Source: Candidatus Obscuribacteraceae bacterium
GTDB taxonomy: Bacteria > Cyanobacteriota > Vampirovibrionia > Obscuribacterales > Obscuribacteraceae
Length of the DNA: 64,000 bases
Assembly (NCBI GenBank): GCA_044226015.1
Contig: JBGAHS010000001.1
Span: 64,001-128,000, forward strand
Reading direction: 5' to 3'
The stretch's first letter is position 1. Each line of letters opens with the position of its first letter. The position numbers and the translations under genes are program-made. Positions 15,576 through 38,221 of this stretch are shown piece after piece. The notes under the pieces were generated by a model. The model was not told where the DNA came from and ran no database searches. It worked only from the letters and a program-made list of their open reading frames with translations.

Positions 15576-16280
15576 TTAATAAATGAGTTTTGTGGTGGTG
15601 TATGTTATTTCTGTTATTAGACTGTAGTCCAGGCGAGCGATTTCCGTTACTGTGAACGTGGCTTGAGAATAAAGTTGAATAGGCACTTCTTTTGACGGTT
15701 CAGTTGATGCGTTGAAGTCACACGAAGTCATGGTTTGGTATCGTCGGAGCGTAAATTTGTCCTTTTCGAGCCAAATCGTTGTCCTTAAACCAGAAGGCCT
15801 CTCCAAAACAAGCTTATAGCAGCTTATCCCCTCGATTTCTTCATCTTGCTTCGGGGTAATTTCTGAAAAGCCTTCGGTCCAAGCATTCATGTTCTCCTTA
15901 ACTGAGGGGAAAAGGATGCAAGGAATGACAAGTGCGCCTGAGCCGATCACTCCTGTAGCTTGTGCTAATGCTAAATACAAAGCTTTTGATTTGAGTCTCT
16001 TTGACAAGCCGTATGAGAAATAAGTTTCTGCGTCATCTGATTCAACAAGTCCTGTTCGGTTGTTTTTGTGCCATTCGAACTTGTATACGGCAGGGGCTTT
16101 GTATTTTGTGCAAAATTCAACACTAGGTTTTGGTCGATCATGGTCAGGAAAACTCCATTGCCGAATACAACCAACATCTTCGTATTCGCGACAAGACACA
16201 TATCGACTAATGAATTCCTCAAACACTGCTGGCACGTTCAATATCATTACCTCACCACAATCTAAATCGCTTAATTGCAT
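15576..16280 (-). CDS. Partner/putative immunity gene of Rhs tip cassette 1; LolA/DUF2092-like beta protein
   Basis: Overlaps the cassette 1 stop, co-directional; EEIEGISCYKL...TIWLEKD pattern resembles LolA-like proteins. Confidence 0.6.
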   Translation of the reverse strand: MQLSDLDCGEVMILNVPAVFEEFISRYVSCREYEDVGCIRQWSFPDHDRPKPSVEFCTKYKAPAVYKFEWHKNNRTGLVESDDAETYFSYGLSKRLKSKALYLALAQATGVIGSGALVIPCILFPSVKENMNAWTEGFSEITPKQDEEIEGISCYKLVLERPSGLRTTIWLEKDKFTLRRYQTMTSCDFNASTEPSKEVPIQLYSQATFTVTEIARLDYSLITEITYTTTKLIY

Positions 16281-17160
16281 CCCATTGCGTTTTCAGTGCG
16301 TTCATAGCTTCGTTTAATGCTTGTTTCGATTGACCTAGGTTCCAAGCGATTGCGGGGTCAATGCCGTTAGCTGAAATACACTCCAAAAGAGATATGACAG
16401 CTCCAGTCAGGCACGTATCATAGGCCACAGGGCAAGGATTAATTTGGTGTTGAATTGAGTTTGGACCGTAAGATTCATAGCATGCTGCCTTTAGCGCATC
16501 ATAGCTCAGCAAACAGCTTTTGCTAGCACTTCCTGTTGGATCTAATTCATTGATTGCTTGGAGAAGATATTTTTCGCTGAGCCTGCCAGCTGTTCCCCGA
16601 AAGGGAAAAGGCAGCGTTTCACCTTTTCCATAGTCATTGGGCGTTAATCCTGTGAAATCGACGAAGTTAGTCGGGCCATTTCCAACGTAAACGTATAGAT
16701 TAGTTCCTCCTGCTTCCTCAAACGGATCTCTGTTGACAAACCTACCCCTTGAAGGAGCATATACTCTGAAGACCGGCATGTTAAGTCCGCTTCTAGAATG
16801 GTAGTAGTAATTTGCATACTGGAATTCTGCGTCGGCACTACCATTTAGTTTGACAACAAGCCCATAAGGATCATAATTGTACTGTGCTTCAATAGCAGTT
16901 ATTCCCCCCACAGTCTTAGTCAGTTCCCTGATGGAACCCAGGCGGTCTTTACTGTAAGAGTATTGATTGGAACCTGCAATGGTGAAGTTGACTTGTCCTT
17001 GATTCAAGAATTGTTTGCCAATACTCAGGCTACCTGACGCATCCCGTTCCTCACACCTAGCTGCCCCGCACCACAAATGCTGTTTCGTCGAAGTGACACT
17101 GCCAGCAGTGCGCTCTTCGATTTTCGTTGCGCGCGAAAGTGCATCATACGAAAATTGGGT
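16252..17160 (-). CDS. Silent Rhs C-terminal cassette 1 (Rhs core end + variable Cys-containing tip); no native start
   Basis: In-frame TQFSYDALSRATKIEERTAGSVTSTKQHLWCG shared with the full Rhs; YYHSRSGL...NRDP...PTNFVDFTGL junction. Confidence 0.88.
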   Translation of the reverse strand, partial: TQFSYDALSRATKIEERTAGSVTSTKQHLWCGAARCEERDASGSLSIGKQFLNQGQVNFTIAGSNQYSYSKDRLGSIRELTKTVGGITAIEAQYNYDPYGLVVKLNGSADAEFQYANYYYHSRSGLNMPVFRVYAPSRGRFVNRDPFEEAGGTNLYVYVGNGPTNFVDFTGLTPNDYGKGETLPFPFRGTAGRLSEKYLLQAINELDPTGSASKSCLLSYDALKAACYESYGPNSIQHQINPCPVAYDTCLTGAVISLLECISANGIDPAIAWNLGQSKQALNEAMNALKTQWDAIKRFRLW

Positions 17161-17202
17161 GATGTTCCCAGTGCGATTTGATTGGATTTCAGAGACTTTT
17201 AA
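17149..17202 (-). repeat. Cassette junction repeat (13-bp core + ~40-bp leader), copy at cassette 1
   Basis: Minus strand reads TTAAAAGTCTCTGAAATCCAATCAAATCGCACTGGGAACAT-CACCCAATTTTCG. Confidence 0.9.
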
Positions 17203-17357
17203 GATTAGCAGAGTCGCTTAGTTTGTCATAATTGTATTGCGCTTCAATAGCAGTTATTCCGCTTAGTCTGCTAGTCTTCCAACAGAGTTCAAAATGGAAA
17301 CGATGAAAATTAATCATTACGTCGAATCGATTCGAAACATATTACGCTCACCGGATC

Positions 17358-18056
17358 TTAAGTGCTGGGATTGGCGCGGAGCTGACAAATCAAAATTTTT
17401 TCCACAATTTCGTTCTTTATAGATATTCCGGACTCGTTTTCAACTAAAGATAAATCCAGAGATTGGTAAATCCGCAGTGCCTGCGCCCAGCGTTGTAGCT
17501 CCATAAGACTATCTGCTAAATTGATCTGATTTTCTAAATCAATTTCATCGGCGTTCGCTGAACGTAATTCAACTGCTTTTACAAAGCAGTCTAAAGCTTG
17601 TTCCAGATAAGCGGTCCTCATCGATGGATCACAGGGGTAATCCTTAAGGATCCTACCTTTTTGCGCCAGAAATCCATCATTTAGTGGAAACATCGAAATG
17701 GCCTTATCGGCAATTAAAAGTGCATCTTTGGCGACTTGGAGTTTCTCTGCAATTGATAATGGGTTCTTTTTTGTCATCCATTTGTGTATGGCCAAACTGA
17801 TCCATGTTAGAAACGTTCCCTCATCCTTCTCTGCAAGCTCGTAGATCGCGCAAACTGTCTTCCATCCAGCCGGAAAGTCCACTCGATGAGCAAGTACTAT
17901 TAGTCTTTCGTCCTCTGTAAATCCAGAATTTGCCGTGGACCTCAGGAAATGCCGGAGCTTGTCTTTGCTTATGAATTGGTCTACTTTTGTGTTGTCGAGC
18001 ACCGTCTGAAATTGCCGACCAGCATCTGTATTCCACTTATTAATGTACTCTGCCAT
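17358..18056 (-). CDS. Putative immunity protein of cassette 2 (helical/TPR-like)
   Basis: Start overlaps the cassette 2 stop; LEQALDCFVKAVEL and LADSLMELQRWAQALRIYQ TPR-like helices. Confidence 0.7.
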   Translation of the reverse strand: MAEYINKWNTDAGRQFQTVLDNTKVDQFISKDKLRHFLRSTANSGFTEDERLIVLAHRVDFPAGWKTVCAIYELAEKDEGTFLTWISLAIHKWMTKKNPLSIAEKLQVAKDALLIADKAISMFPLNDGFLAQKGRILKDYPCDPSMRTAYLEQALDCFVKAVELRSANADEIDLENQINLADSLMELQRWAQALRIYQSLDLSLVENESGISIKNEIVEKILICQLRANPST

Positions 18057-18903
18057 TAGACACCTCCATAAACCGGGTTGCCTGGCCAGGGCAGTAAAAT
18101 GGTATCAAATAAATCCACCATGGCAATTGTGGTGGAACAGCCTTGGGCAACGGTAGCGGCAGCCTGGTTTCGTCGTGGGATTTTTCAATTGGCTGCTTTT
18201 TCGGTATCGTTCGGTAATCTGGTGGTCTTTTGCCACAGTACTCCCAGCTTCCAGAAAATGTTTCGCCTTTTCCAACAGAATCATTGCATGCCGCGTCATT
18301 TTTGTAACAGCATCCTGGATCCCGACCAGCTTTCAAGCATTTTTGAGTCTGCTGCTCACAACAATCTTTGCTTGAGCAACAAGCTAATCCGTATGGGTCC
18401 ATGAATATTGTTGGAGCATTATTTGCGTATTCGAACAAATTCGTTCCGATATTTTCCCCAAGCGGATCTCTGCTTAACCACCGGGCGAATGAGGGTGCAT
18501 AGTTTCTGAAAAGCGTTTGGTTCATGCCTGAGTTCTGGTGGAAGTACATACCAGCGTAGCCGAAGTCTGAAAACGTTCCGCTCGTGCTTAAGTAAACAAG
18601 CCGTCCGTAAGGCTCATATGAAACTATAAGATCAATGAGTAAAGAGGCACCAGTAGTGTGCGTCATTTCTCTCACTGACCCCAGGTGATCAAATGTGAAG
18701 AAATGGGTTGTTGATGCACTCGCGGCAAATATCACCTCTCCTTTGCCAAAAAACTGCTTGCCATTACTCAAACTACCAGTGCCATCTCTTTCCTCGCACC
18801 TAGCGGACCCGCACCACAAATGTTGCTTTGTGGAAGTGACACTGCCAGCAGTGCGCTCCTCGATTTTAGTTGCGCGCGAAAGTGCATCATGCGAAAATTG
18901 GGT
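18040..18903 (-). CDS. Silent Rhs C-terminal cassette 2 (Cys-rich tip)
   Basis: TQFSHDALSRATKIEERTAG..., WLSRDPLG and PTIFMDPYGL; tip CCSSKDCC...CC; core at 18892-18904 with a degenerate leader. Confidence 0.88.
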   Translation of the reverse strand, partial: TQFSHDALSRATKIEERTAGSVTSTKQHLWCGSARCEERDGTGSLSNGKQFFGKGEVIFAASASTTHFFTFDHLGSVREMTHTTGASLLIDLIVSYEPYGRLVYLSTSGTFSDFGYAGMYFHQNSGMNQTLFRNYAPSFARWLSRDPLGENIGTNLFEYANNAPTIFMDPYGLACCSSKDCCEQQTQKCLKAGRDPGCCYKNDAACNDSVGKGETFSGSWEYCGKRPPDYRTIPKKQPIEKSHDETRLPLPLPKAVPPQLPWWIYLIPFYCPGQATRFMEVSNGRVH

Positions 18904-19158
18904 GATGTTTATGGTGGGAGAAGTCTTGATTTCGGTGAAGTCGAATGATGCAGCCAAAGTCTCTGGGTGAGAAGTCCGTCGTGCTTTTAATTCTTCCAGT
19001 GGAAGAGGTTCGAGGTTTCCGCATCCTCATGGTAATAAAAGTCAGCTGAATTCAAGGCTAAGCATTGCTCAAATTTTTGAAATGTGCATAACAGCGACCG
19101 CATCAACTATAATTTAAGTCATAGTTAGTTATGACTTACAAAAGTCCATTTTTTAGCC

Positions 19159-19761
19159 GTGGATCGATTTAAGGATTATTCGCAATTGAAAACATACTCG
19201 GACAAAGGGATCACCGAGTACGTTTCGGGGAATGGAGAGTTATTGCTTCTGGCAAGCTTTTCGACAACTTTTGAACGTGGCCAGTTGATTATCTTTGATT
19301 ACAAAAACGAAACCAGAACGCCGACAGTAGGACGCGACGGAAAATTACTTTTTAAGGGATTTAGCCCCTTTTTTCAATGCCGAATGGAATTCGATTTCAA
19401 GAATGGCCATCTGACCTACACTCCTGCGAGTCCTTCATTGAAGGAGCTAGGAAAAGGCGGTCAGCTCGTAGACTTGATTAGTGAAATAAGAATTGTCTCG
19501 ATAATTCCTTCTATGTTATTTGGACTCTATTCTCTGCCATTTGCAAACTCAGAATCGATCATTGTTCCATCAGAAGTTGAACTCGCAACAGGAACATCAA
19601 CTAGAAAAATCCGCTACAACAACAGTGGCTACATTGAGGAAATCATCAGAGACTCCGTACAGGAAGACCGCTCTGTTTTCCTTTCTGGATTGCAGCTAAC
19701 AAAATCTACTTCCTCTTACAACACTAAAATTCTGGTGGGAGAACATCGCTGGGAGGAGTAA
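19159..19761 (+). CDS. Hypothetical protein, LolA/DUF2092-like N-terminus
   Basis: YSQLKTYSDKG...FSTTFER...IFDY resembles the N-terminal part of 15576..16280. Confidence 0.5.
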   Translation: MDRFKDYSQLKTYSDKGITEYVSGNGELLLLASFSTTFERGQLIIFDYKNETRTPTVGRDGKLLFKGFSPFFQCRMEFDFKNGHLTYTPASPSLKELGKGGQLVDLISEIRIVSIIPSMLFGLYSLPFANSESIIVPSEVELATGTSTRKIRYNNSGYIEEIIRDSVQEDRSVFLSGLQLTKSTSSYNTKILVGEHRWEE

Positions 19762-19829
19762 CTCCCAGAATGCATAGCAGAATGTCCAATGAAAGTCTTG
19801 CTTCGTTCAACTGCAATCGATACTTTAAG

Positions 19830-19890
19830 GAAGGTTCCCAGCGGATTCAGCTCTGTGGTGACTCTACCCATTTCATCGAAGGACCAACGT
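19830..19890 (-). repeat. 61-bp fragment of the Rhs gene body (copy of 33606..33666), inverted
   Basis: Reverse complement matches 33606..33666 with 2 mismatches (RWSFDEMGRVTxELNPLGTF). Confidence 0.9.
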
Positions 19891-20057
19891 TTACCAGGCT
19901 CTGAGAATTCCAGACCACTCAACTGTCCCGGCTTATCAAATAACTCTCGCACTTTGCTTCGTGCTCAAATGGTGGCTCAAAGTTTTTGGCTAGATATGGG
20001 CATTACAGAGAATCGAGTATGTATACTGTATAGTGTTAGCCACTGTATGAGGCTCTA

Positions 20058-20435
20058 ATGACGTTTCTTATACATCAATGTCGGCACTTTATTCGACGAA
20101 CCGAACTAAGCGTACAAATTTTTTTTGGGTTCACTCCTGATTTCGAAAAATTAGATTACGTGTTTTACTCGCGCCCCCTCTTTTCCAAGGAAGGTTTGAT
20201 CAGGGATCACTTATCTTTACTCCCATTTGCAGACACCTCCTTGAAGCGAGTTGTTAAAGACTTGGGTGGTTGGGAGCATATTACAGATCCCGAGTATTTA
20301 CCGAATAGCGAAGAGTATGAAAGACTAGCCGAAGTCGGTTTTTCAAAGGATGATTTTAATAAAACTAGAGAGTATCTGTCCGATAGAAGCGCCTATAACC
20401 GAAGAGCCCTAGCTCGACAAAAGGAAAAGAAGTAA
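20058..20435 (+). CDS. Hypothetical protein convergent with cassette 3
   Basis: 125-aa ORF ending 13 bp from the cassette 3 stop. Confidence 0.5.
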   Translation: MTFLIHQCRHFIRRTELSVQIFFGFTPDFEKLDYVFYSRPLFSKEGLIRDHLSLLPFADTSLKRVVKDLGGWEHITDPEYLPNSEEYERLAEVGFSKDDFNKTREYLSDRSAYNRRALARQKEKK

Positions 20436-20448
20436 TCTCCTAATTTTT

Positions 20449-21297
20449 TCACTGACTAAGATTGACCGTTGCTCCGGGGAACTTCGTTAGACATTTATTA
20501 ATATCTTCTGCAAAATCAGTATCACAATCCTCCAGTTCCTGAGCTAGCACCGGATTGTTACTGGCTTCCGGCTCGTTGGCATGGCAGCCTAATTTGTCGC
20601 TCCGGCAATCATTCCATTTGTTCAGCGCTTTAAGAACACACATGTTCATTTTCATCTGAATAAAATTCATTTTGATATTTTTTATGGCGTTAGTGATTGC
20701 GTGCGCTGAAATCATCATAACGGCTGTGCTAGCCACGACGGCAGCGCCGACTGGGGTAAGGGCGATAGTCGCTGCCTGAGCATATCGACCGGACGGATCT
20801 ATATCCAAAGTTGGAGAGTTTTCTACATATCCGTAAAGATTCAACCCTCCTTTTTCTCCAATCGGATCTCTGTTGATGAATCTACCAAGAGCAGCATTAT
20901 AAGCCCTGTAGACCGGCATGCTGAGTCCACTTCTTCCATGCAGATAGTATCCTGCATATTGCATGTCAGCAGAGCTGGTGCCCGTCACAATGGTCTCAGC
21001 GACCACACCATAAGGATCATATGAATATCGGGTTTTAATGGCACCAGTGGAATCGGTCAGCTCTCTTATAGAGCCCAGGTGATCTTTGTTATAGAAATAA
21101 TTTGCGGGCGTGCCACCACTAAAGTTCACCTGGCCTCTGCTGAAGAATTGCTTACCATTGCTGAGACTGCCTGATGCATCTAGTTCCTCGCATCGCTCAC
21201 TCCCGCACCACAAATGTTGCTTCGTCGACGTAACACTACCTGCGGTGCGCTCTTCGATTTTCGTGGCACGCGAAAGTGCATCATACGAAAATTGGGT
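20449..21297 (-). CDS. Silent Rhs C-terminal cassette 3 (hydrophobic helix + Cys-spaced helical tip)
   Basis: Same in-frame TQFSYDALSR junction; KDHLGSIRE, FINRDPIG and DIDPSGR motifs. Confidence 0.88.
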   Translation of the reverse strand, partial: TQFSYDALSRATKIEERTAGSVTSTKQHLWCGSERCEELDASGSLSNGKQFFSRGQVNFSGGTPANYFYNKDHLGSIRELTDSTGAIKTRYSYDPYGVVAETIVTGTSSADMQYAGYYLHGRSGLSMPVYRAYNAALGRFINRDPIGEKGGLNLYGYVENSPTLDIDPSGRYAQAATIALTPVGAAVVASTAVMMISAHAITNAIKNIKMNFIQMKMNMCVLKALNKWNDCRSDKLGCHANEPEASNNPVLAQELEDCDTDFAEDINKCLTKFPGATVNLSQ

Positions 21298-21340
21298 GAT
21301 GTTTCCGGTGGGATTTGATTGGATTTCAGAGGTCTTTAAA
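21286..21340 (-). repeat. Cassette junction repeat (core + leader), copy at cassette 3
   Basis: TTTAAAGACCTCTGAAATCCAATCAAATCCCACCGGAAACAT-CACCCAATTTTCG. Confidence 0.9.
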
Positions 21341-21508
21341 CACTTTACCCGCTACTATCAAAACGAGTTCAAGTAGGAATCGATATTGCGAAAGGGTGAA
21401 CATTTTGCCAAATCGATTCGAAGTCAACCTTTCAGCGCGAACCTGTTAGTAGTTGTACCGCATTATTCCAAACAAAGTCCCATTTCGTCACTCTTGAGGT
21501 GGAGGGAG

Positions 21509-22177
21509 TTACAATGCTGCATTAAGTCTATCGGAGAAAGGGATTCCTTTTTCAATATATTTAAGTCGAATTGAATCCCACGTATAAACATAAGCATGTA
21601 GGAGTTTTCCTCGGTCAACAACGTGGTTGGTAATGATCAGAGTTTTCGGAATTTTTCCTTCTTTTGACAGCACGAATTCTGGTTGATACAAGGATCCTGT
21701 TTCCAATACTTTCTGTATTTTTCCATGAGCGCAAAGGAATACGGTCGTCAAAATACTGCGTGGACCGTCTGAAAGAATAGCCATCTTATCATCCAGACGA
21801 AGGATGGAAATTGGTTTACCGTAGCAGAGTTCGTCAACATCATCGCCATTGTCAGAGCAATAAACTAATCTATTTTTTTTGTCAAAGATTTTTAGAACCG
21901 CTTGTTCCCCGGCTTTGCCCCTGAGCGCCCCAGGCGTTCTCATTATGCGAACAGAGTAGTGTTCAGTCTCGGTGTCGCTTTCGTTTCTAACAGTCCAATC
22001 GTAAAGAAACCAAAGTGAACTGTGTTGATCTCTCCACTTTCTCCAACGCGCAAGGCTTTTCACATCTGCTGTAGTTTTAGCTTTCACTGTTCGAAGCTCT
22101 TCATAGGCGTATCCGGCTGGCAACCAAAGAATCGCGGATATGAAAGACACAGCAAGCACATAAACCAATCCTGGCAT
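21509..22177 (-). CDS. Putative exported immunity protein of cassette 4
   Basis: Starts 3 bp after the cassette 4 stop; N-terminal signal peptide LVYVLAVSFISAILWLPAGYA. Confidence 0.72.
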   Translation of the reverse strand: MPGLVYVLAVSFISAILWLPAGYAYEELRTVKAKTTADVKSLARWRKWRDQHSSLWFLYDWTVRNESDTETEHYSVRIMRTPGALRGKAGEQAVLKIFDKKNRLVYCSDNGDDVDELCYGKPISILRLDDKMAILSDGPRSILTTVFLCAHGKIQKVLETGSLYQPEFVLSKEGKIPKTLIITNHVVDRGKLLHAYVYTWDSIRLKYIEKGIPFSDRLNAAL

Positions 22178-22180
22178 AAA

Positions 22181-23140
22181 TCATCCACCCTTGGACTTTT
22201 GTAAGCAGCCTTTATCGCACCGAGTCTTTTTAGCTTTTAAGCATTTTTCGCATTTTTGAATTGCTCCTAAATATCCGGGATCTCCACCACCAAATTTACT
22301 AATACCCTCCTCCAGCCCGAATTTACTGACGTAATACCCGGCAAGCATGGAACCCGCTCTCAAATTTTTTGCAGGATCTGACATTTCGCTCCACTTCGCA
22401 CCAACTTGGCTTGCAGATTGCTCGTTATATATTTGCAAAAGACCCTTTGCACCAGAGCCTTCTGTGTTGTCTACACTCGGCTCAAAATTATCGGGTGAGT
22501 GTGGAGTGCTTTCACGAAAAGCCATACATAACAAAAATTCCGTACCCAGTTGAGTCCCAACTGTGCCAGCTACGGTCTTGCCTGAATAGTTACAACCTCC
22601 GTCCAGCAACCTAGCAACTTGAACGCAAGTGAGAAGCCCTAGTGGGTCCAGGTAACGAATTGGATTTCCGCCAACATAGCTGTAAATATTTAAATCACCG
22701 GCTTCACCAATTGGATCTCTACTGAGCCATCTGCCTAATGAAGCTGAGTATTGACGAAACCAAGTCATGTTCAATCCACTTCGCATATGTGAGTAGTAAC
22801 CAGCATATTGAAAATCAGCGTCCTGTGAGCCTGAGATCTTGTTGACGACACCATATGGATCATAACCATACAGTGAAACAATGGTCCCTGAGCTATTAGT
22901 TAATTCCCTCACAGATCCAAGCTTATCTATGCAATAAAAATAATTAGATCCTGTGGCAGAATTAAAATTGATTTGTCCCATGCCGCAGAACTGCTTTCCA
23001 TTGCTCAAGCTTCCGGACAGATCTCGTTCTTCAGACTTCTCTGAATCGCACCATAAATGTTGCTTCGTCGAGGTAACACTGCTTGCGGTGCGCTCCTCAA
23101 TCTTCGTTGCGCGCGACAGTGCATCATACGAAAATTGGGT
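22181..23140 (-). CDS. Silent Rhs C-terminal cassette 4 with lytic transglycosylase (SLT/lysozyme-like) tip
   Basis: PIRYLDPLGL junction; tip motifs MAFRES (catalytic Glu), GAKGLLQI and DPAKNLRAGS. Confidence 0.85.
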   Translation of the reverse strand, partial: TQFSYDALSRATKIEERTASSVTSTKQHLWCDSEKSEERDLSGSLSNGKQFCGMGQINFNSATGSNYFYCIDKLGSVRELTNSSGTIVSLYGYDPYGVVNKISGSQDADFQYAGYYSHMRSGLNMTWFRQYSASLGRWLSRDPIGEAGDLNIYSYVGGNPIRYLDPLGLLTCVQVARLLDGGCNYSGKTVAGTVGTQLGTEFLLCMAFRESTPHSPDNFEPSVDNTEGSGAKGLLQIYNEQSASQVGAKWSEMSDPAKNLRAGSMLAGYYVSKFGLEEGISKFGGGDPGYLGAIQKCEKCLKAKKTRCDKGCLQKSKGG

Positions 23141-23182
23141 GATGTTTCCAGTGGGATTTGATTGGTTTTCAGAGGCTTTTAA
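23129..23182 (-). repeat. Cassette junction repeat (core + leader), copy at cassette 4
   Basis: TTAAAAGCCTCTGAAAACCAATCAAATCCCACTGGAAACAT-CACCCAATTTTCG. Confidence 0.9.
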
Positions 23183-23191
23183 CGAGCTGAC

Positions 23192-27790: not shown

Positions 27791-27800
27791 TGAGGTAACT

Positions 27801-29123: not shown

Positions 29124-29139
29124 AAGCGAAGAAGAGAAA

Positions 29140-32100
29140 ATGAAATTTATCAGAATGAATAACCGCTCGCGTTCGGCACTATTGATGGTGCTCCTATTGC
29201 TTAGCATGGTGCCTTCGCAAATGGTTTTATCTGCGCCTGCTGAACGCATTTCAATAAAAAAGCAGCATGAGGCTAGCAACACTGCTAACCCACGCCCAAA
29301 AATTGAAATTGGCGACTCATCGCTTTCATTTCCTGCGTCCCCCACGGACAGTGATCTCATAAATTGCCACGTATTTTTGGAGCCATTAGCACCGTCTGAT
29401 CAAGATGTTAATCAAAAGGAAAACAAAGAGCTTGCGACCGCAATCCTGAAGTATCTAAAAAGGCAGAAATCAGAAGATGTATCTGCACTTACTTCATTCT
29501 TGCAGTCTAATCCTAAGTCACGATGGACGGCTTCTCTCGCGTTGAATGTTGCGCAAAAATTGTTTGATGCGGGTTATCTAAATGAAGCAGCCGATTACTG
29601 GGAAAAATCATGGAATCTGTCTAAAGATAAGAAAGATCCGGCGATGAAAATGGTTGCAAACTCAGCCGTATCGCATTTGGTGCAACTGGAAGCTCGCCTC
29701 GGGTTAGCGGAAAAGCTCGAAGAACATTTGAGATTAGCTTCTTCACGTGTAATGGCGGCGTCAGATATGTTGCGGCTAAAAGCTGCACAAGATGGACTCT
29801 GGACCATGAACCAAAATGAAGGCATTGCCTTCAAATGTGGTCCATATGGGCTAAAGTCCCTTGCACTTTCAAAAAGCCCTGGGCTGCAAACCACTCGCTC
29901 ACCTGAAGAAGTTGATCAAATAATCAAAACCGCAGATTCCACGAAGCGTGGAACAAATCTAGAGCAGTTGAAAGATCTTGCTCGTAAATTGGATTTGGAC
30001 CTTTCACCTGTTAAGCGTAAGTCCGGATCTCAGATTCCAGTTCCTAGCCTCGTGCATTGGTCCAAAGGACACTTTGCTGCCATTCTCGAAGAGTCCAATG
30101 GTTTTTACAAAATCGAAGATCCTACTTTCGATTCTGACGGAACAAAATGGGTGAGCGCAGCTGCTCTTAATGCTGAGAGCGATGGCTATTTCATGATTCC
30201 TTCTGACAAAGTGGGCGCAAACTGGATTACGCTCGACGATAGCGAAGCAAGAAATGTTTGGGGAAAAGGTTATGCCGCGCTTCCTCAACAATTCAAAACT
30301 CCTTATTGCCCAAAAACACCTTGCGCTGGTGGTAATTGCAAGCCCAAGGGAGGATCTGGAGGAGGACCTGATTCGTGTGGTATGCCTGTAGCGTCAGCGT
30401 TTTCAATGAATGCCACCTTGAACATCGTGGATACGCCATTGACGTATTCGCCACCAGTAGGGCCTGAAATGGGGGTAGTTGTAAATTACAACTACAATGA
30501 GGGACAACAACCATCAACGTTTTCTTTCACCAACCTGGGGCATAACTGGAGCCTGAACTGGCTCTCTTACCTTACCATTGATAGCACAGACCCAATCCAC
30601 CGGATAGTTAACGTACGCGTCCGTGGTGGAGGTTATGAGACATACAAGGAGGCATTCAACCACGATGCTTATTCACTGGCGATCATTGCAGAAGTCAACA
30701 ACGCTGGCGTGATTAGTTGGGAGCGACGGATGCCGGACGGAAGTGTCGAGAAATACGAAAGAAAAAATGCAGCAGGCGACACATTCTTTCTAACGCAAGT
30801 ACTCGACCCGCAAGGTAAAGCTGCAGTTTTAGCCTATTCTTCAAACACTGTGACTGACCCAGGCTATTTCCGCCTGGCTTCGATAACAGACGCTTGCGGC
30901 AACTCTCCAATGACTGTTGCGTATGACTCAAACATCTCAACAGACCCTGGCTATTACAAGGTAACCGGGGTGACAGATGGCTTTGGTCGCTCAGCGAGTT
31001 TTGCTTATAGCGCAGATAAGAGCCAGTTGTTGAGCATGACGGATGCAGTTGGTAACCAATCTAGCTTTCGCTATCAGACGGATACGGACTCGACTTTCAT
31101 CAATCTCATGGTGTCACCGTACGGCAGTACGCAATTCTATCGCTACACTCCTGGAGGTGATACCGACACTGTTCCAGAAGGACTAAAATTCACATTGCCA
31201 GACGGAACAAGCACTCGCATCGAAAATTGGTTGAGTTCTATCAAACAAACTTACTTCTGGGATAGAGAAGCCTCTGAAATGTATCCCAACGATGCGTTCA
31301 ACAATGTGTACACACATTGTCAGACCACAAGATGGCTTTTTATTTCGAATTCTATAGAGTCTTCAATCCCTAGCTGGACTAGGAAGCCATTGGAAGCCCC
31401 CGTGAACTATTACAGCGTTGGACAAAGTGGGCAGAATGCAACTTCGGCTGGCGGTCTTACGCGATATCAGCAGATTGCCCAGCAGCTGGTGCCAATAAAA
31501 AATAGTATCACTGTTGGTGGCACCGTTACCGCGGGTAATCTAATCAAGGTTCAAATTCGTGATTTAGGACTTATTGATTCAGGAGACATTGTTCTCTCGT
31601 ACCAGGTCGTCTCTGGCGATACTATTTCTACTATCGCCGCCGGGCTTGCACAGAGTTTCAACAATGATCGGTATTGCCAGGGATATGGCATAACAGCGGC
31701 TGCAGTGGGGAACGTGATAACAGTAACTTCTCTTACTGCCAATGATTTTGACAGTAGCAAATTTGCAAATTTATCGGGTTCAATAACAGAGACCTTAACT
31801 TTTGCGTCTGGAACCAACCGGGTTCAGAACTTCAGTTTCAGCGGCACTCCTACTGCAGGACAGGTGTATGCAATTACTGTTACGGATTCCAGCCTGCCTG
31901 GTGGCTCTCAAACAGTGAGTTATACAGTTCAGGCTGGCGATAGCAATTCAGATATCGCGCAAGCACTTTCACTTGCAGTAAACGCAAATACGAACCTGCA
32001 AACATCTAAGATTTCTTCTGCTTGGACTAGTGCTCCCTATAGCGGGGTGATCGGTCAAATCCCCGCCATTAGCGCGGCTCCCATGCTGGGTTGTCAGTCA

Positions 32101-35100
32101 TCTTCGACAAGCACCACAACCTATGCAAGCACGGTAAATGGCTCATCCAGTGTCAATTTCACTAATGTTACCAGTGCCCACGGATTGGTGAAATCTAACT
32201 ACAAGACTTTCCCTGGCACAATATGGGGGAATCCGATTCAGGTCATCGATGAGCTAGGCAGGCGTCTGGAGTTTTCCTACGCTAGCAACCAGATCGACGT
32301 GTTGAAAGTTGTGAACTTAAGCACTTCGCCAATCATGGGGTTGGCTTACTATACCTATGGAAGCACCCCGCATAAGCCAACAATGATCATTGATGGAACA
32401 TTGCAGCACACTCTGTACAGCTACAACAGCTTGGGTCAATTAACAACGCTTACAGATCCTACGGGTGCTGTTACAACTTACAATTACGACGCCAATGGAT
32501 ACCTCACTTCTATAGATGGACCGCTCAGTGGAAACCAGGATGTTACCAGCTTTTCCTTCTATGGATATGGAGTTCCAAGTTCCATCACGGACTCAGAAGG
32601 TTACGTGTTGAATTTTTCATATGACGGACTAAATAGACTAACGACAACGTCCTTTCCGGACGGAACATCGGAGGAAACGAAGTACAACAGGCTTGACGCA
32701 GTCATGATGTCCGATCGCATCGGTCGCTGGACCCAGCGAACCTATGACAATATGCAAAACCTCGTTTCGGAAACCGATCCATTAGGAAGACAAACTAAGT
32801 ATTGCTGGTGTCATTGCGGTGGGCTAGCTTCATTGACTGACCCTGCAGGCAATACCACAAAGTGGCATCACGATCTTGAAGGACGAGTGATTCAGAAGGA
32901 GTATGCTGATGGGTCTCATTACGATTACGTTTACGAGACGACGAACAGCCGAATAGCCTCTATTTCTGATGCAATTCAACCTACACCGCAAACAACATTG
33001 TTTGCCTACAATTTCGATGATTCGGTTGCGGTGAAACGGTACGCCAATGCGGTGAATGCGACATCGCAGGTGGTATCAGCTTTTGATCCGTACTTTGATC
33101 GCCCGCAGTCAATCTCAAACGGATGGGGTCAATACAACTATAAGTATTACCCTAATTATCAGGATTTCGGTGCCGACACAGGTTGGACTTCAATTGTAGT
33201 GGGCGGAATCCCAGAAGTCCCGAACGCAACCGATACGATAAGCATCGTTTTCTATAGCTCAAATTTGCCAGGAGGACAATATACATTTAATTACACAGTC
33301 CCTACGGGAGACGTGGGAAATCCGGCTCAGTTAGCAACTCACCTCGGCGCTGCTATAGGTGCAAATGCAACTCTGCAGGCCGCAAATATTTTTACGGCGA
33401 CAAGCGGTGTTCTAATTAAAATCCACAATCAAACAACAGCACTTCGAGTAGCACCGACTGCTACGGGGGGCACCATCGTGACCTGCGGTGCCGGCAAGCT
33501 CAGCGATGTGACCAATAGCGTGATTTCCAATTCACAGATTTCTTACGGCTACGATAATGATGGAAGAACGAACGTCAGACTCATCAACGGCGGAAATAAC
33601 AATTCACGTTGGTCCTTCGATGAAATGGGAAGAGTCACCTCAGAGCTGAATCCGCTGGGAACCTTCAACTATGCCTACATCGATAACACGTCTGGATCAT
33701 CGAAGGGCGTCAATCGTCTTGCTTCGATAACCTATCCCAATAGCCAGGTCACGAACTTTAGCTGGCTGCCGAACATCGGCGACCAGCGCCTGCAACAAAT
33801 TTCGAATCTCAGCCCCACGGCAACTACATTGTCTAAATTTGCCTACGCATACAATTCTGCGGGTGAAATCACGCAATGGCAGCAGCTTCAGAATAGCGTC
33901 AACACCCATCTTGGACTGGCTTACGATAACGCTGGACAGCTGATTACAGCAGTTTCCGATTCGGGCACGCAATTCAAAGCTTACGTTGCGGGCACTCCGC
34001 ATACTGGTGATGTTGTCTCAGTGACTGCATATGACGCCTCGCTAACCGGCACGACTCCTGTGGGTCAGGAGACTGCGTCCTACACAGTTGTGGGCGGAGA
34101 TACATCGGCGACAATCGCTACAAATCTTGCTAGCGCAATCACGTCAGTTATGGGGACGAACCTGGGACTCAGTGCTTCTGCCTCGGGCAAAGTCATTTCT
34201 ATCACGACATCAGCCACGCGAGCAACGCAATTTACTTCCGCTGTCACCGGCGCCGGTGCAACTGACACCATAATCATGGACCGCGGACAACCTAGCGGAA
34301 ATCGGCACAGTCAGCTTTACTACGGCTACGATTGCGCGGGTAATCGCACGGGAGTTCAGGGCGACAGCACTGGAAGTTTCGGCACTGGTGGCTTGAGCAC
34401 AAACGCCACGGCATACGGCTACAACAATCTCAATGAGCTCACAAATTATGCCCCTGGTGGTCCAATCAGATTTGAAGGAACCACGACCAATCCGATTATT
34501 TCAGCAGTGGCAAATGTCACAAAAACTGTCACGGTCACCGGCTCGGTGACTACCGGGGACAAATTAACGGTTAGCGTCCATGATCCTGCAATTACTGCCG
34601 GGAAGGATATCACCTACACGGTCGCTGGTGGCAACACAACCACCGACATCGCAACAGGCTTGAAAAACCTGGTCAACGCCGATGGCACGTTGTCTTCTCT
34701 GGGCATCACTGCAACTTCGAGTTCTAATGTGCTGACGATTACATCGACATCAGCCAACAAGACAATGTATTCGGCGAGCAAAAACACTGGAGCTACCGAA
34801 ACACTAACTCTCAACACTTCTGCTTCGGATACGGGGCTGATAAGTCCATCGAATGCATTTAGTTCGAATCCGAAGCTAGCATTGAGTTCGAACACCGTGA
34901 AGGTGACAGCCAAGAGTGGCGGCGGAACGGCCGCAACCAATTCGTATCCAATAAGCATCAATTCGGGCTCTTCCGCGACACTGCAATATGACGCGAACGG
35001 CAATATGACGAGCGACGGCACGAACACCTATGCCTGGGATGCCGAAAACAGGCTGATTCAGATTACCTATCCGGGTTCTGGAAATAACACCCAATTTTCG

Positions 35101-36069
35101 TATGATGCACTTTCGCGCGCCACGAAAATTGAGGAACGCACCGCTGGCAGTGTCACGTCTACGAAGCAACATCTGTGGTGCGGATCGTCCCGATGCGAGG
35201 AAAGAGATGCAGCCGGTAGCATGAGCAATGGGAAGCAGTTCTTCGGAATTGGGCAGGCAAACTTTGCCAGTGGCACGCCGGCGAAATATTTCTACACGCG
35301 AAGCCATGATTTTTCAGTTAGAGAAATGACCGACAATTCAGCTGCTATTGTTGCCCAGTATGGGTATGAACCATATGGAAAACGAACTAAACTTCAAGGA
35401 GCGTCCGAGGCTGATGTGCAATATGCAGCTATGTACATGCATCCAAGAAGTGGGTTAAGCTTCACGCATTTTAGGCAATACGATGCTGATCGGGCTATAT
35501 GGTTAAGTCGAGATCCGATTTCGAGCGGATATGGTTATGCAGCTAATAGTCCAGTCAATTTTATAGATCCAATCGGATTGAAAGAAATCAATTTAACAGT
35601 GGAGTTGGAGGCTAATTGCCTTGGATATGCAACTTATCCTATGACTGGAGACTTACTTCACAACCCACGGGCTGAGGAATCATTGTCGGATACGCTAGGA
35701 AGACTAGGATATAGTTGTTTTCCAATCTCCTCAGCAAAAGATTGCAAGTGCGACTGTCCGTCTGGTGGGGCAGGAGGTGCTGGAGGTGCGGGTAATCACA
35801 CACCTAAGCTGGTAGTCGGAGTTTATACTTATGAAAGCAATCCTCCAAACGCTGACCCTTGGTCCGATCCCTGGATTAAGGGACCTGGTAATGATTTTCA
35901 TGCTGTCAGGGAAGATGCCCCTGGAAATTGGAGTTATGTTCCAAGGAGCATGAACGTTCATAAGACCAATGGTAACGTAGCTGAAGCTATACAAGTATCT
36001 TCTCCCGAAAAAGGATTTCCCGGACGCAAACTCCCAAAAAACCGCACATTTTGCTGTTGTGGAAAGTAA
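29140..36069 (+). CDS. Full-length Rhs/YD-repeat polymorphic protein (signal peptide, C39-like peptidase domain, YD repeats with inserted domains, Rhs core, variable tip)
   Basis: N-terminal signal peptide; KCGPYGL...VHWSKGHF...IEDP; YD repeats (YNSLGQLTTLTDPTG, YDANGNMTSDG, YAWDAENRL); WLSRDP...PVNFIDPIGL. Confidence 0.95.
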   Translation: MKFIRMNNRSRSALLMVLLLLSMVPSQMVLSAPAERISIKKQHEASNTANPRPKIEIGDSSLSFPASPTDSDLINCHVFLEPLAPSDQDVNQKENKELATAILKYLKRQKSEDVSALTSFLQSNPKSRWTASLALNVAQKLFDAGYLNEAADYWEKSWNLSKDKKDPAMKMVANSAVSHLVQLEARLGLAEKLEEHLRLASSRVMAASDMLRLKAAQDGLWTMNQNEGIAFKCGPYGLKSLALSKSPGLQTTRSPEEVDQIIKTADSTKRGTNLEQLKDLARKLDLDLSPVKRKSGSQIPVPSLVHWSKGHFAAILEESNGFYKIEDPTFDSDGTKWVSAAALNAESDGYFMIPSDKVGANWITLDDSEARNVWGKGYAALPQQFKTPYCPKTPCAGGNCKPKGGSGGGPDSCGMPVASAFSMNATLNIVDTPLTYSPPVGPEMGVVVNYNYNEGQQPSTFSFTNLGHNWSLNWLSYLTIDSTDPIHRIVNVRVRGGGYETYKEAFNHDAYSLAIIAEVNNAGVISWERRMPDGSVEKYERKNAAGDTFFLTQVLDPQGKAAVLAYSSNTVTDPGYFRLASITDACGNSPMTVAYDSNISTDPGYYKVTGVTDGFGRSASFAYSADKSQLLSMTDAVGNQSSFRYQTDTDSTFINLMVSPYGSTQFYRYTPGGDTDTVPEGLKFTLPDGTSTRIENWLSSIKQTYFWDREASEMYPNDAFNNVYTHCQTTRWLFISNSIESSIPSWTRKPLEAPVNYYSVGQSGQNATSAGGLTRYQQIAQQLVPIKNSITVGGTVTAGNLIKVQIRDLGLIDSGDIVLSYQVVSGDTISTIAAGLAQSFNNDRYCQGYGITAAAVGNVITVTSLTANDFDSSKFANLSGSITETLTFASGTNRVQNFSFSGTPTAGQVYAITVTDSSLPGGSQTVSYTVQAGDSNSDIAQALSLAVNANTNLQTSKISSAWTSAPYSGVIGQIPAISAAPMLGCQSSSTSTTTYASTVNGSSSVNFTNVTSAHGLVKSNYKTFPGTIWGNPIQVIDELGRRLEFSYASNQIDVLKVVNLSTSPIMGLAYYTYGSTPHKPTMIIDGTLQHTLYSYNSLGQLTTLTDPTGAVTTYNYDANGYLTSIDGPLSGNQDVTSFSFYGYGVPSSITDSEGYVLNFSYDGLNRLTTTSFPDGTSEETKYNRLDAVMMSDRIGRWTQRTYDNMQNLVSETDPLGRQTKYCWCHCGGLASLTDPAGNTTKWHHDLEGRVIQKEYADGSHYDYVYETTNSRIASISDAIQPTPQTTLFAYNFDDSVAVKRYANAVNATSQVVSAFDPYFDRPQSISNGWGQYNYKYYPNYQDFGADTGWTSIVVGGIPEVPNATDTISIVFYSSNLPGGQYTFNYTVPTGDVGNPAQLATHLGAAIGANATLQAANIFTATSGVLIKIHNQTTALRVAPTATGGTIVTCGAGKLSDVTNSVISNSQISYGYDNDGRTNVRLINGGNNNSRWSFDEMGRVTSELNPLGTFNYAYIDNTSGSSKGVNRLASITYPNSQVTNFSWLPNIGDQRLQQISNLSPTATTLSKFAYAYNSAGEITQWQQLQNSVNTHLGLAYDNAGQLITAVSDSGTQFKAYVAGTPHTGDVVSVTAYDASLTGTTPVGQETASYTVVGGDTSATIATNLASAITSVMGTNLGLSASASGKVISITTSATRATQFTSAVTGAGATDTIIMDRGQPSGNRHSQLYYGYDCAGNRTGVQGDSTGSFGTGGLSTNATAYGYNNLNELTNYAPGGPIRFEGTTTNPIISAVANVTKTVTVTGSVTTGDKLTVSVHDPAITAGKDITYTVAGGNTTTDIATGLKNLVNADGTLSSLGITATSSSNVLTITSTSANKTMYSASKNTGATETLTLNTSASDTGLISPSNAFSSNPKLALSSNTVKVTAKSGGGTAATNSYPISINSGSSATLQYDANGNMTSDGTNTYAWDAENRLIQITYPGSGNNTQFSYDALSRATKIEERTAGSVTSTKQHLWCGSSRCEERDAAGSMSNGKQFFGIGQANFASGTPAKYFYTRSHDFSVREMTDNSAAIVAQYGYEPYGKRTKLQGASEADVQYAAMYMHPRSGLSFTHFRQYDADRAIWLSRDPISSGYGYAANSPVNFIDPIGLKEINLTVELEANCLGYATYPMTGDLLHNPRAEESLSDTLGRLGYSCFPISSAKDCKCDCPSGGAGGAGGAGNHTPKLVVGVYTYESNPPNADPWSDPWIKGPGNDFHAVREDAPGNWSYVPRSMNVHKTNGNVAEAIQVSSPEKGFPGRKLPKNRTFCCCGK
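35088..35100 (+). repeat. Junction core inside the full-length Rhs gene (codon ~1984)
   Basis: CACCCAATTTTCG, identical in all six cassettes. Confidence 0.92.
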
Positions 36070-36689
36070 TGATGACCATTAAGCGATATATATCTATCTC
36101 AATGAGCCTTTTGATTCTCATCGGACCTAAAGCTTTTTCAGCACCCATAGAAAAAGGAAGAATGCAGTTAGAAGTATTCAGTCTCGGAAGGCTTAAACAT
36201 CAAAAGCAGAATCAAGCCTGTTTAGGCTTGCGCTTTTTTTGTAATGCCGACAACCCCATTGAAGTTGTGCTGCAATCCTTTTGTGGTAAAGGAGTCGAGT
36301 CAGAGATGCTATTTAATCACAAGAAAGATCCAGGCTCACTCAGAAACGTACTTTTCGCCAACTTCCACTATCAATGGGTAAACCAAAAGGGAAAAACTGT
36401 ATTGGAAGAAACTGCTTATGCTAACCAATCCGAAGTGAAATTGAAAAAAGAACAATGTGGATTTGCCGATGTGTCAGAATCTGCCATGGTTTATCTTCCT
36501 ATCGTGTTACCAACTCCTCCTGGTAAGTACAACTTGAAGGTGCAATTCGACAACACGGCATTGGAAGACGCAAGCCAGTCACGGAACAACATGGGAGTTG
36601 ATGGACCTGACGGAAAGCCGCTGCTTATATCAAAGCCGACGCAGGTATTCGAGGCAATCATGACCGAGCAGGAAATTGTAATCAATTGA
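36069..36689 (+). CDS. Putative exported immunity protein for the currently attached Rhs tip
   Basis: TAATG stop/start overlap with Rhs; signal peptide MMTIKRYISISMSLLILIGPKAFS. Confidence 0.75.
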   Translation: MMTIKRYISISMSLLILIGPKAFSAPIEKGRMQLEVFSLGRLKHQKQNQACLGLRFFCNADNPIEVVLQSFCGKGVESEMLFNHKKDPGSLRNVLFANFHYQWVNQKGKTVLEETAYANQSEVKLKKEQCGFADVSESAMVYLPIVLPTPPGKYNLKVQFDNTALEDASQSRNNMGVDGPDGKPLLISKPTQVFEAIMTEQEIVIN

Positions 36690-36697
36690 GTGCTCAT

Positions 36698-36836
36698 ACA
36701 CCATAATCACGGACCACGGACAACCTAGCAGAAATCGGCACAGTCAGCTTTACTACGGCTACGATTGCGCGGGCAATCGCACGTGAGAGCACTGGCAGTT
36801 TCGGCACTGGTGGCTTGAGCACAAACGCCATGGCAT
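36698..36836 (+). repeat. ~140-bp decayed duplicate of the Rhs body (34265..34414)
   Basis: Shares GAAATCGGCACAGTCAGCTTTACTACGGCTACGATTGCGCGGG and GTTTCGGCACTGGTGGCTTGAGCACAAACGCC; small internal deletion. Confidence 0.9.
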
Positions 36837-36876
36837 CTCTGTTTGAACACTGGCACACTAGGCGATTTTACTAGAA

Positions 36877-36937
36877 TTAAAAACCTCTGAAATCCAATCA
36901 AATTGCAAATTGCACTGGAAACATCACCCAATTTTCG
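36877..36937 (+). repeat. Cassette junction repeat (leader + core), copy at cassette 6
   Basis: TTAAAAACCTCTGAAATCCAATC(AAATTGC)x2-ACTGGAAACAT-CACCCAATTTTCG. Confidence 0.9.
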
Positions 36938-37801
36938 TATGATGCACTTTCGCGCGCCACGAGAATCGAGGAGCGCACCAGCGGTAGCCTTACGTCTACA
37001 AAGCAGCACCTGTGGTGTGGTTCACAGAGGTGCGAGGAAAGGGATGCATCAGGCAGCCTGAGTAACGGGAAGCAGTTCTTCACTCTGGGCCAGAGGATCT
37101 TCACCAGTGGTAGTGGCACTAACTACTTCTATATAAAGGACTCACCTCCCGGCAGCATAAGGGAGATGACCGATGCCTCAGGTGCCATAGCAGCCCAGTA
37201 TGGTTATGGACCATGGGGGGAAGTCACCAAGATTCAGGGAGTCGGGGACTCTGACTTTCAGTATGCCGGTTATTACATTCATTCCAGAAGTGGACTCGGA
37301 CTCACCCGTTATAGAGCCTACAATGCCAATCTCGGTGTTTGGCTTAGCAGAGATCCTAGCGATGATGAGGAAGATGAGCCCAATAGATACAGGTATGTTG
37401 CGAATAATCCGATAAAGTTTAACGATCCTCTTGGTCTGTTCCCCGGTATTCCGGGTCCACCGCCAATACCTAATCCTTCATCCGGAGGCGGGCACATAAT
37501 AGGACCAGCAGGTAGCCCGCCACCTAACGACGAACCAAATGATAATGAGGTATACAATCATCCGGCCTATCTGAATTGCCTGGCTGGTGTACACAACCTA
37601 TTCGATTCCATCCAAGCGCAATACGAAAAAGAGGAAGCTGACGACTTCAAGAAAGCTGGTAAGAATAAGAAGAAGCTAAAGTGCGCACGAGACAAGTGGC
37701 GCAAGAAATGGCAGGACTTCAATGATGATCAAGCGTCGAGATCGGCCGATTGCTTCACAAAGGCGAAGATGATTATGCGACGGGAGAGGGGGTCACGATA
37801 A
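36926..37801 (+). CDS. Silent Rhs C-terminal cassette 6 (Pro-rich linker + helical tip)
   Basis: In-frame TQFSYDALSRATRIEERTSG... 80 codons upstream of the ORF-track ATG at 37166; WLSRDP and PIKFNDPLGL. Confidence 0.88.
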   Translation, partial: TQFSYDALSRATRIEERTSGSLTSTKQHLWCGSQRCEERDASGSLSNGKQFFTLGQRIFTSGSGTNYFYIKDSPPGSIREMTDASGAIAAQYGYGPWGEVTKIQGVGDSDFQYAGYYIHSRSGLGLTRYRAYNANLGVWLSRDPSDDEEDEPNRYRYVANNPIKFNDPLGLFPGIPGPPPIPNPSSGGGHIIGPAGSPPPNDEPNDNEVYNHPAYLNCLAGVHNLFDSIQAQYEKEEADDFKKAGKNKKKLKCARDKWRKKWQDFNDDQASRSADCFTKAKMIMRRERGSR

Positions 37802-38221
37802 TTTTCCGAATATGGTTTCCAGATCGATCTGGGGGTCACCTTCTAATAAGGAGTCAGGCTCAGCATCGTCAGCATGATCATCTAGCTCTTCACCTTCAAT
37901 GTTTATGTGTTCCTCAAGTTGCCATCCTTCCTTCCTAAAGAACAACAGTGTATTTCTAAGGAAGTTCACAGCTTGACAAAGAGACTGCATAGAATCTTCA
38001 CCAACCAGTTTCGCAGGGGATCTTAGTCCGTCAAGGTAAACGGTACAAAACGATGGACCATGATTCTGAACCTTCGTGGGCAACCCAATCGCCAGTCGTA
38101 CCGGGATCCCTCTTTGCCCAGTTGCTGGCATTATTGGTTCCGGATAGTCGTTCTTCGGGGGCACAAATAACATCCACATTTCAGCTATGGGTTCTTCCTT
38201 CGAATCCGATATCTTATTCAT
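37793..38221 (-). CDS. Hypothetical protein (DUF6968-like), convergent with cassette 6
   Basis: VRLAIGLP...CTVYLDGL...VGEDSMQSL pattern; family call from memory only. Confidence 0.6.
   Translation of the reverse strand: MNKISDSKEEPIAEMWMLFVPPKNDYPEPIMPATGQRGIPVRLAIGLPTKVQNHGPSFCTVYLDGLRSPAKLVGEDSMQSLCQAVNFLRNTLLFFRKEGWQLEEHINIEGEELDDHADDAEPDSLLEGDPQIDLETIFGKLS

Follow-up and report, generated by a model that had tools for sequence, protein, structure and literature searches.

A candidate site-specific system for exchanging the toxin tips of an Rhs protein in a Candidatus Obscuribacteraceae bacterium

How does an Rhs protein come by a new toxin tip? Ever since the displacement model was proposed (PMC2935791), it has been unsettled how polymorphic toxins, Rhs proteins included, replace their tips. 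The locus discussed here lies in a 64,000-nt stretch of DNA from Candidatus Obscuribacteraceae bacterium (GCA_044226015.1, JBGAHS010000001.1, positions 64,001-128,000), which we call the window and by which all coordinates are given unless a contig is named; the genome is denoted G000, and the contig holding both the window locus and a second one, locus 2, is C11. According to the original prediction, a tyrosine recombinase inverts the Rhs operon between arrays of silent tip cassettes, in the manner of a shufflon. We find it reasonably probable that Rhs tips are exchanged site-specifically and that the system works here as a shufflon, by inversion together with re-integration. A dedicated recombinase for Rhs tip swapping, likely by flipping or re-inserting DNA, would be new relative to the literature searched.

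Layout of the locus and anatomy of its sites

The central segment (25475-35088) carries a tyrosine recombinase on the minus strand and, divergently, two partner genes (26933-27790 and 27801-29123) and the Rhs body on the plus strand. Five silent tips extend leftward on the minus strand, and the attached tip and one more silent tip extend rightward on the plus strand; the coordinates and this five-left, two-right layout, as first described, hold throughout. All seven tips are uninterrupted frames of 282-326 aa, and the common start claimed for them is exact, each opening with TQFS(Y/H)D at what corresponds to Rhs codon 1984. The Rhs-associated core domain scores above the curated cut-off in all six silent tips, beyond which the tip C-termini are mutually unrelated. 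The full Rhs gene, including the attached tip, runs from 29140 to 36069 (plus strand, 2309 aa). It had further been inferred that crossover with a left cassette would fuse the new tip together with its downstream gene, and would invert rather than delete DNA. Two refinements apply: tips 21297 and 36926 are each followed by a gene that runs towards them instead of in their own direction, and the 36925 site repeats the body site in direct orientation, where crossover would excise rather than invert.

What marks the border between body and tip? A 13-bp core had been reported, which is indeed identical in all seven copies, but the shared core is actually 18 bp long. Namely, the 18-mer CACCCAATTTTCGTATGA gives seven window matches at <=1 mismatch, compared with a mean of 0.01 in 100 shuffles: five on the minus strand (17144-17161, 18887-18904 with 1 mismatch, 21281-21298, 23124-23141 and 25458-25475) and two on the plus strand (35088-35105 and 36925-36942). 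Together with 17 copies at locus 2, this makes 24 sites on C11. With arm limits read from symmetry, each site consists of a left arm (-11 to -2), the spacer CACCCAA (-1 to +5) and the right arm TTTTCGTATG (+6 to +15); the spacer is identical in 24/24 sites and the right arm in 23/24, and the left arms are variable. In other words, the C11 sites have the Rci/sfx-type layout of a 7-bp spacer, a conserved right arm and a variable left arm, as described for the R64 sfx sites (PMC11852207). The copy 46 nt behind the recombinase stop codon is palindromic at 9/10 arm positions, as against 3-5/10 in the other 23 copies, the chance of such an arm being ~0.003. Synonymous deviations number 0/114 in codons 0-4 vs 108/513 in codons 5-29 (23 sites, one of the 24 having been left out for a 3-nt deletion), a contrast that, because the sites are kin, is not an independent-sample test.

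The surroundings of the core are less uniform. A ~30-bp motif, distinct from the body sequence, lies upstream of most cassettes, and the tips are 86-96% identical over their first 90-150 nt. At locus 2, a 451-bp inverted duplication, 100% identical, reaches as far as +16 of the core, after which the two copies continue into different tips; a pair of body-type flanks that differ at 4 of 174 nt separates from +19 on. An exact-core scan returned 4 matches among genome contigs, from unrelated taxa by title, and 0 among metagenome contigs. Judged from the letters, the repeat is a recombination-type site rather than mere homology, and crossover likely falls within the 7-bp spacer CACCCAA. The features of the locus are as follows.

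15576-16280, minus: gene 3' of tip 17160, predicted immunity or partner gene by position, 234 aa, no Pfam match
16252-17160, minus: silent tip cassette L5, 302 aa from TQFSY (frame, Rhs-associated core)
17144-17171, minus: site of L5 (motif scan); left arm 17162-17171, spacer CACCCAA 17155-17161, right arm 17145-17154
17358-18056, minus: gene 3' of tip 18903, predicted immunity, 232 aa, weak TPR-like matches
18040-18903, minus: silent tip cassette L4, 287 aa, TQFSHD (frame, Rhs-associated core)
18887-18914, minus: site of L4 (motif scan), one right-arm substitution; spacer 18898-18904
18904-19830, no strand: cassette tail, including a convergent 200-aa gene at 19159-19761 (plus)
19830-19890, minus: 61-bp Rhs body remnant, 97% to 33606-33666
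20058-20435, plus: convergent gene after tip 21297, possible immunity, 125 aa
20449-21297, minus: silent tip cassette L3, 282 aa (frame, Rhs-associated core)
21281-21308, minus: site of L3 (motif scan); spacer 21292-21298
21509-22177, minus: gene 3' of tip 23140, predicted immunity, 222 aa
22181-23140, minus: silent tip cassette L2, 319 aa, C-terminal part SLT lytic-transglycosylase-like (E 0.0011, just under the Pfam cut-off)
23124-23151, minus: site of L2 (motif scan); spacer 23135-23141
23944-24588, minus: gene 3' of tip 25474, predicted immunity, 214 aa
24563-25474, minus: silent tip cassette L1, 303 aa, directly behind the recombinase (frame, Rhs-associated core)
25458-25485, minus: recombinase-adjacent near-palindromic site, CATACAAAAA / CACCCAA / TTTTCGTATG; spacer 25469-25475, arms 9/10 complementary
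25522-26640, minus: tyrosine recombinase, 372 aa (356 aa from a later ATG), PF00589
26933-27790, plus: partner gene 1, 285 aa, signal-peptide-like N terminus, no family match
27801-29123, plus: partner gene 2, 440 aa, Laminin_G_3, CHB_HEX_C_1/Fn3_assoc
29140-35088, plus: Rhs body, codons 1-1983, signal-peptide-like start, Peptidase_C39, RHS/YD repeats
35078-35105, plus: body (expression) site (motif scan); spacer 35088-35094
35089-36069, plus: attached tip, 326 aa, Rhs-associated core and DPxG motif
36051-36689, plus: gene 3' of the attached tip, predicted immunity, 212 aa
36698-36836, plus: Rhs body remnant, 88-94% to 34265-34414
36915-36942, plus: site of R1 (motif scan), same orientation as the body site; spacer 36925-36931
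36926-37801, plus: silent tip cassette R1, 291 aa (frame, Rhs-associated core)
37793-38221, minus: convergent gene after tip 36926, possible immunity, 142 aa

The protein has the RHS/YD repeats, the Rhs-associated core and the DPxG-type motif before a variable C-terminus that characterize Rhs polymorphic toxins, and its body is likely secreted; the signal-peptide-like N termini of the body and both partner genes were judged by eye. A weak homologue of partner gene 1 precedes one related Rhs gene, and homologues of partner gene 2 are found before related Rhs genes. Among the window tips, the family search gave the sub-threshold SLT match in 1/7 and no toxin family in the remaining six; an immunity family was matched by 0/8 downstream genes. 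At locus 2 there is Ntox37 in 1/4 tips and Imm53 in 1/4 downstream genes, and a sister-strain tip, P0288, matches SLT. The tips would thus be predicted antibacterial toxins, and the gene next to each a putative immunity gene.

The recombinase family, locus 2 and swaps between strains

Is the recombinase a plausible agent? It matches PF00589 with E 3e-21, and the catalytic residues R211, K238, H296, R299, H322 and Y332 are all present. Arm-DNA-bind_3 (PF13356), present in 22/24 family members scanned, is absent from it, and no remnant of the domain was found in the six frames of 25501-27400 with a custom profile. Loss of the arm through a sequencing frameshift is rejected, given that there is no upstream remnant and that the nearest homologues are arm-less as well. 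Namely, the four nearest non-self homologues (54-59%, 357-372 aa) lack the arm and cluster with the window recombinase, and beyond these the nearest homologues are Arm-DNA-bind_3 integrases of Obscuribacterales. That said, arm-less monophyly is partial, as P0006 (weak arm score) and G006:C15 cluster with the arm-bearing P0007/P0008. The homologues carry the names Obscuribacterales or Melainabacteria, and the runs containing the DNA (three runs, one sample) are recorded as bioreactor metagenome.

The proposed tie between the recombinase and Rhs loci is borne out by its relatives, the family being found in their Rhs loci. The usual order, on one strand, is body-tip, immunity, recombinase and truncated tip, with up to three repeats per array. 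An Rhs-system match was obtained at 27/78 metagenome loci of the family, and a co-directional tip lies <=2 kb downstream at 17/44 family loci with >=2 kb downstream (the 17 including near-duplicates). Over 45 distinct cassette rows from relatives, two of them really body ends, the match to the body consensus is 0.16-0.18 at -31/-30 and climbs to 0.91 at -29/-28, where 38/45 rows begin AGAT; the arm-bearing enzymes would therefore break at -29. The other arm-less enzymes with visible DNA context (L064 and G006:C15) adjoin tips starting near -1, as in the window. The -29 sites are weakly palindromic save for two G019 sites (7-8/10), and symmetry is therefore no general trait of the family. Three further arrangements were seen in passing. 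At L064:8717-13620, a short 709-aa Rhs with beta-propeller-like repeats comes first and after it, between direct sites, an antiparallel recombinase lacking the arm and then a truncated tip; L095, L067/L048, L063 and G097:C3:67,000-99,000 hold convergent tip/recombinase arrays, the mirror image of the window layout; and at G000:C4:23,998-28,097 (L045) an arm-bearing relative of the recombinase is divergent from a different truncated Rhs-type gene.

Locus 2 spans G000:C11:1,237,700-1,289,300 (its centre in L044) and again has two outward-facing arrays, with 17 core copies at C11:1,239,461-1,287,840 (13 minus, 4 plus). Its Rhs body is a 5'-truncated paralogue, 79% identical from residue 324. Near-identical tips occur there in three copies, on both strands, and one tail is common to both loci: the tail at 18904-19830 belongs to a 1047-bp stretch that is 96.5% identical to locus 2, where another tip follows. 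No related recombinase lies near locus 2, and the window enzyme may serve it in trans. A misassembled centre of locus 2 is rejected, one contig spanning the junction and the duplicated 450 bp being at 2.5-fold depth. Elsewhere in the genome, further tip arrays stand at contig ends (C3:1-6,500, C3:410,000-421,271, C5:260,000-274,600 and C13:99,000-105,008), their tips pointing away from the ends, and no body that would match them turned up in the assembly; in six of the C3/C13 cassettes the start is again the spacer CACCCAA, but the right arm differs. These arrays are possibly further two-sided loci with unassembled centres. What is more, contig G000:C2 (70 kb, 140-bp identical ends), possibly a plasmid, carries at 16,099-29,284 a full 2883-aa paralogous Rhs with a partner gene and no cassettes; its tip end and the following gene resemble the leftmost locus-2 cassette.

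Do tips actually change places? A comparison of cassette order in relatives had been suggested, and order as well as tip attachment does differ between close strains, with switches at the site. Among the arm-bearing relatives, L100 has two blocks, of 5505 bp (100%) and 4833 bp (99.98%), in the opposite order to that in L101 and G110:C7, with borders at AGATCGA sites; as all sites are direct, this implies excision and re-integration. Likewise, the same tip follows a body-type flank in one relative and a recombinase flank in another. In a sister strain, the ENA protein P0247 (2306 aa), which falls in the locus-2 Rhs cluster, is the full-length locus-2 body (299/300 of the last body residues) joined at TQFSY to the tip of the C11:1267945 cassette, which is silent on the minus strand here (tip 334/336 identical). 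P0247 and P0001, a recombinase differing from the window's at 6/356 residues, each lie on a 260,066-nt contig, presumably one and the same. Contigs of this length also encode three other proteins (P0288, P0295 and P0297) in which a locus-2 flank is joined to a tip different from the one found here; two of the flanks are 30/32 identical, and the third consists of an 8-residue leader only. Of those three tips, one is a 78-residue remnant in the present genome, one has no match and one has only a 36% paralogue. This strain evidence for tip switching concerns locus 2, not the window's own locus. For the latter, neither Rhs nor recombinase was found beside hemL in 5/5 same-genus genomes and the two flank genes lie on different contigs, so that no orthologous window locus was available for comparison. 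A second, independent divergent layout is seen on JADMIO010796452.1 (L135 and L073), with four sites of one spacer: a recombinase and a tip point away from the partner genes, upstream of which they lie, and have the same spacer as the body site.

Inversion, re-integration or homologous recombination

How might these observations fit together? We propose that the arm-less recombinase would cut at the spacer CACCCAA of the sites where the seven in-frame tips start. The central segment would invert against the five opposite-strand cassettes, thereby fusing a new tip to the Rhs body, and cassettes would also be excised and re-inserted, with the recombinase itself making the joins observed. As to origin, the enzyme may have been the integrase of a co-directional 'tip + immunity + integrase' element inserting into rhs, which next would have lost its arm domain together with the long att arm; finally, one rearrangement would have placed the integrase divergently from the Rhs operon, whereby excision between the body site and its own site became inversion. 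Since most relatives are co-directional, the comparison points to excision and re-integration as the ancestral route. Several features speak for inversion: the geometry shared by the two loci, an enzyme without the arm, sites that are asymmetric, the 451-bp inverted duplication whose end falls in the core, the join of the body to an opposite-strand tip and the JADMIO010796452.1 layout. Layout alone, however, is no proof of function, as one illegitimate inversion would make that of the window from a co-directional array.

Several observations weigh against this scheme. Locus 2 is decayed: its body is truncated at the 5' end, some tips are frameshifted, and IS-like sequences have inserted. Circles or conversion would be required to explain the duplicated tips and the shared tails. 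A co-directional order prevails among the relatives, including L064 with its arm-less enzyme, direct sites and spacers differing at one base, and 27/44 family loci have no tip within 2 kb downstream. In P0247, the body/opposite-strand join is equally explained by re-integration of a circle, there is no silent copy of the displaced locus-2 tip among 12 matches, and residue 12 fits the attached tip and the consensus, not the C11:1267945 cassette. Consequently, the crossover cannot be placed in the spacer and may lie up to ~28 codons downstream; such a late crossover is as homologous recombination or a misjoin would give, the comparison being at protein level. The Logan contigs of the sample's three runs, which are the read-level data used, hold no alternative junction for window 17001-37000, but as they break at the repeated sites this says little either way. 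All nine loose contig ends looked up (9/9) map elsewhere on C11. One contig of depth 4.8 leads from the recombinase through site 25475 into a locus-2 tip, but its switch lies ~70-100 nt into tip 25474, inside shared sequence, and it was set aside as a possible graph chimera. One part of the original prediction finds no support, namely that exchange proceeds by inversion only and without loss of repertoire: most relatives are co-directional, an order that allows only excision and integration, some sister-strain tips are absent or broken here, and there are duplicated and decayed cassettes.

Could site-specific excision and re-integration account for everything? In that case circles of site, tip, immunity gene and left arm would enter the body site and push the old tip downstream, and the inverted left array would be a frozen accident of one old rearrangement, the central segment not flipping. 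The co-directional tip/recombinase arrays of the relatives, the blocks swapped at AGATCGA borders, the tip found on both kinds of flank, the triplicate near-identical tips on both strands of locus 2 with the tail shared between loci, and the sister-strain tips absent here would all follow. Simple tyrosine recombinases that are arm-less and use short core sites have no evident discrimination against inverted sites, however, and the present enzyme accordingly lacks an evident way to refuse them; outward-facing arrays recur at both loci here and on one unrelated contig, and the 451-bp inverted duplication ending in the core would be most simply read as a join of flipped with unflipped copies. We regard re-integration alone as unlikely, if still a serious candidate. 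A markedly poorer prospect is that ordinary orphan arrays are reshuffled by homologous recombination of the RecA type, acting on the ~90 bp of similarity that follow the core, the recombinase being a stranded, degenerate integrase that once made the breakpoints and is now inactive. Homologous exchange is the route that has been published (PMC2935791, PMC3967940), and the similarity of the tips over their first 90-150 nt, residue 12 of P0247 and the switch within the low-depth contig are compatible with it. Yet invariance is limited to the 18-bp core rather than spread across the homology, breakpoints are base-exact and not variable in length, cassettes that diverge right after +16 to +19 still keep the core, the enzyme retains its catalytic residues, and four other proteins share the conserved arm-less form.

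Returning to the combination of inversion and re-integration, it is part of a broader proposal to which we give about an even chance. Namely, an Obscuribacterales integrase family would target an rhs-internal site and move minimal elements of toxin tip and immunity gene, and its arm-less descendant would run a two-locus, 24-site shufflon that flips the Rhs operon reversibly. This would be the first dedicated site-specific machine for polymorphic-toxin tip exchange, and an integrase-to-invertase transition. The locus and its relatives offer a candidate enzyme, a defined site and strain-level swaps, so that the question of tip replacement is now testable. If inversion is true, the cell could change weapons reversibly and still keep every immunity gene, in contrast to the deletion route of Salmonella (PMC3967940), and the relatives would form a natural series that leads from integrases with an arm to an invertase without one, the target site shifting by 28 bp; it would also yield new short-site recombinases for DNA shuffling tools.

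Relation to known systems and minor observations

Rci belongs to the IntP2 subgroup and has an extra C-terminal domain. It is an arm-less member of an arm-bearing recombinase group (PMC8138268), and the R64/IncI pilV shufflon that it serves (PMC11852207, PMC3414803, PMC8138268) resembles the present locus in its constant N-terminus, exchangeable in-frame C-termini, adjacent arm-less tyrosine recombinase and sites in both orientations. Unlike there, the cargo here is a predicted polymorphic toxin with a partner gene, not an adhesin, and is chromosomal; the segment predicted to flip, set between two outward arrays, contains both the body and the recombinase; one of the sites is nearly symmetric; the nearest relatives of the enzyme are Arm-DNA-bind_3 integrases; and relatives show excision and re-integration. 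The locus would work like a shufflon, with inversion as a putative route, but we do not file it as an Rci shufflon.

As for Rhs genes themselves, the displacement model proposed circular intermediates and knew of no integrase beside rhs genes (Jackson 2009, PMC2935791), and in Salmonella tips change by a deletion route (Koskiniemi 2014, PMC3967940). Like the orphan arrays of these papers, the locus has a DPxG-delimited variable C-terminus, truncated tips with small genes and displaced old tips, and circles are proposed; it differs in its base-exact breakpoints, its dedicated recombinase family and cassettes on both strands. A classical orphan array, co-directional, with variable core fragments and no integrase, it is not, since 5/6 silent tips occupy the opposite strand, every tip begins at the same base, and a gene of the integrase family lies next to them. 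In the Streptococcus pneumoniae tvr locus (PMC6265443), recombinase-driven excision and re-integration via circles shuffles 3' gene parts, as the co-directional relatives appear to do, but it is hsdS specificity domains that are shuffled, with no inverted arrays and no integrase per cassette. Bacteroidales rAID (PMC12247911) and XerC/D-adjacent polyimmunity loci (PMC3482391) share a tyrosine recombinase beside a conflict-gene array and conserved intergenic motifs; they differ in holding orphan immunity genes only, with no in-frame fusion of a toxin tip to a delivery body. Against rAID stands the Rhs tip that opens every cassette here, and against an IntI-family integrase, as in integrons, a TIGR02249 score of 20.6 bits vs a cut-off of 265. 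The Rin shufflons of phage tail fibres reportedly swap the tips of a large extracellular protein by a tyrosine recombinase as well, as a host-range switch and with no toxin/immunity pairs. In the literature searched, which covered few subscription papers and no supplements, no Rhs shufflon or Rhs-targeting integrase was found described, nor does either appear in the available parts of 10.64898/2026.07.13.738213, PMC3482391, PMC3414803 and PMC13183296; a list of recombinase neighbourhoods in Additional File 1 of PMC3482391 may be relevant to the Rhs-recombinase link.

Some smaller observations concern the window at large. The body remnants between cassettes (19830-19890 and 36698-36836) look like signs of earlier deletions not made at the site. 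Pieces of ~100-120 bp at 38590-38710 and 24448-24549 are shared crosswise with locus 2 at 96-97%, and past the right end of each locus lies part of a predicted immunity gene whose counterpart stands in the left array of the other. A promoter and terminator scan gave chance levels only. Further along, at 50647-56605 on the minus strand, lies an operon with strong AT skew that encodes a TIG-domain protein, an M23 peptidase and an ARC6-like IMS-domain protein.

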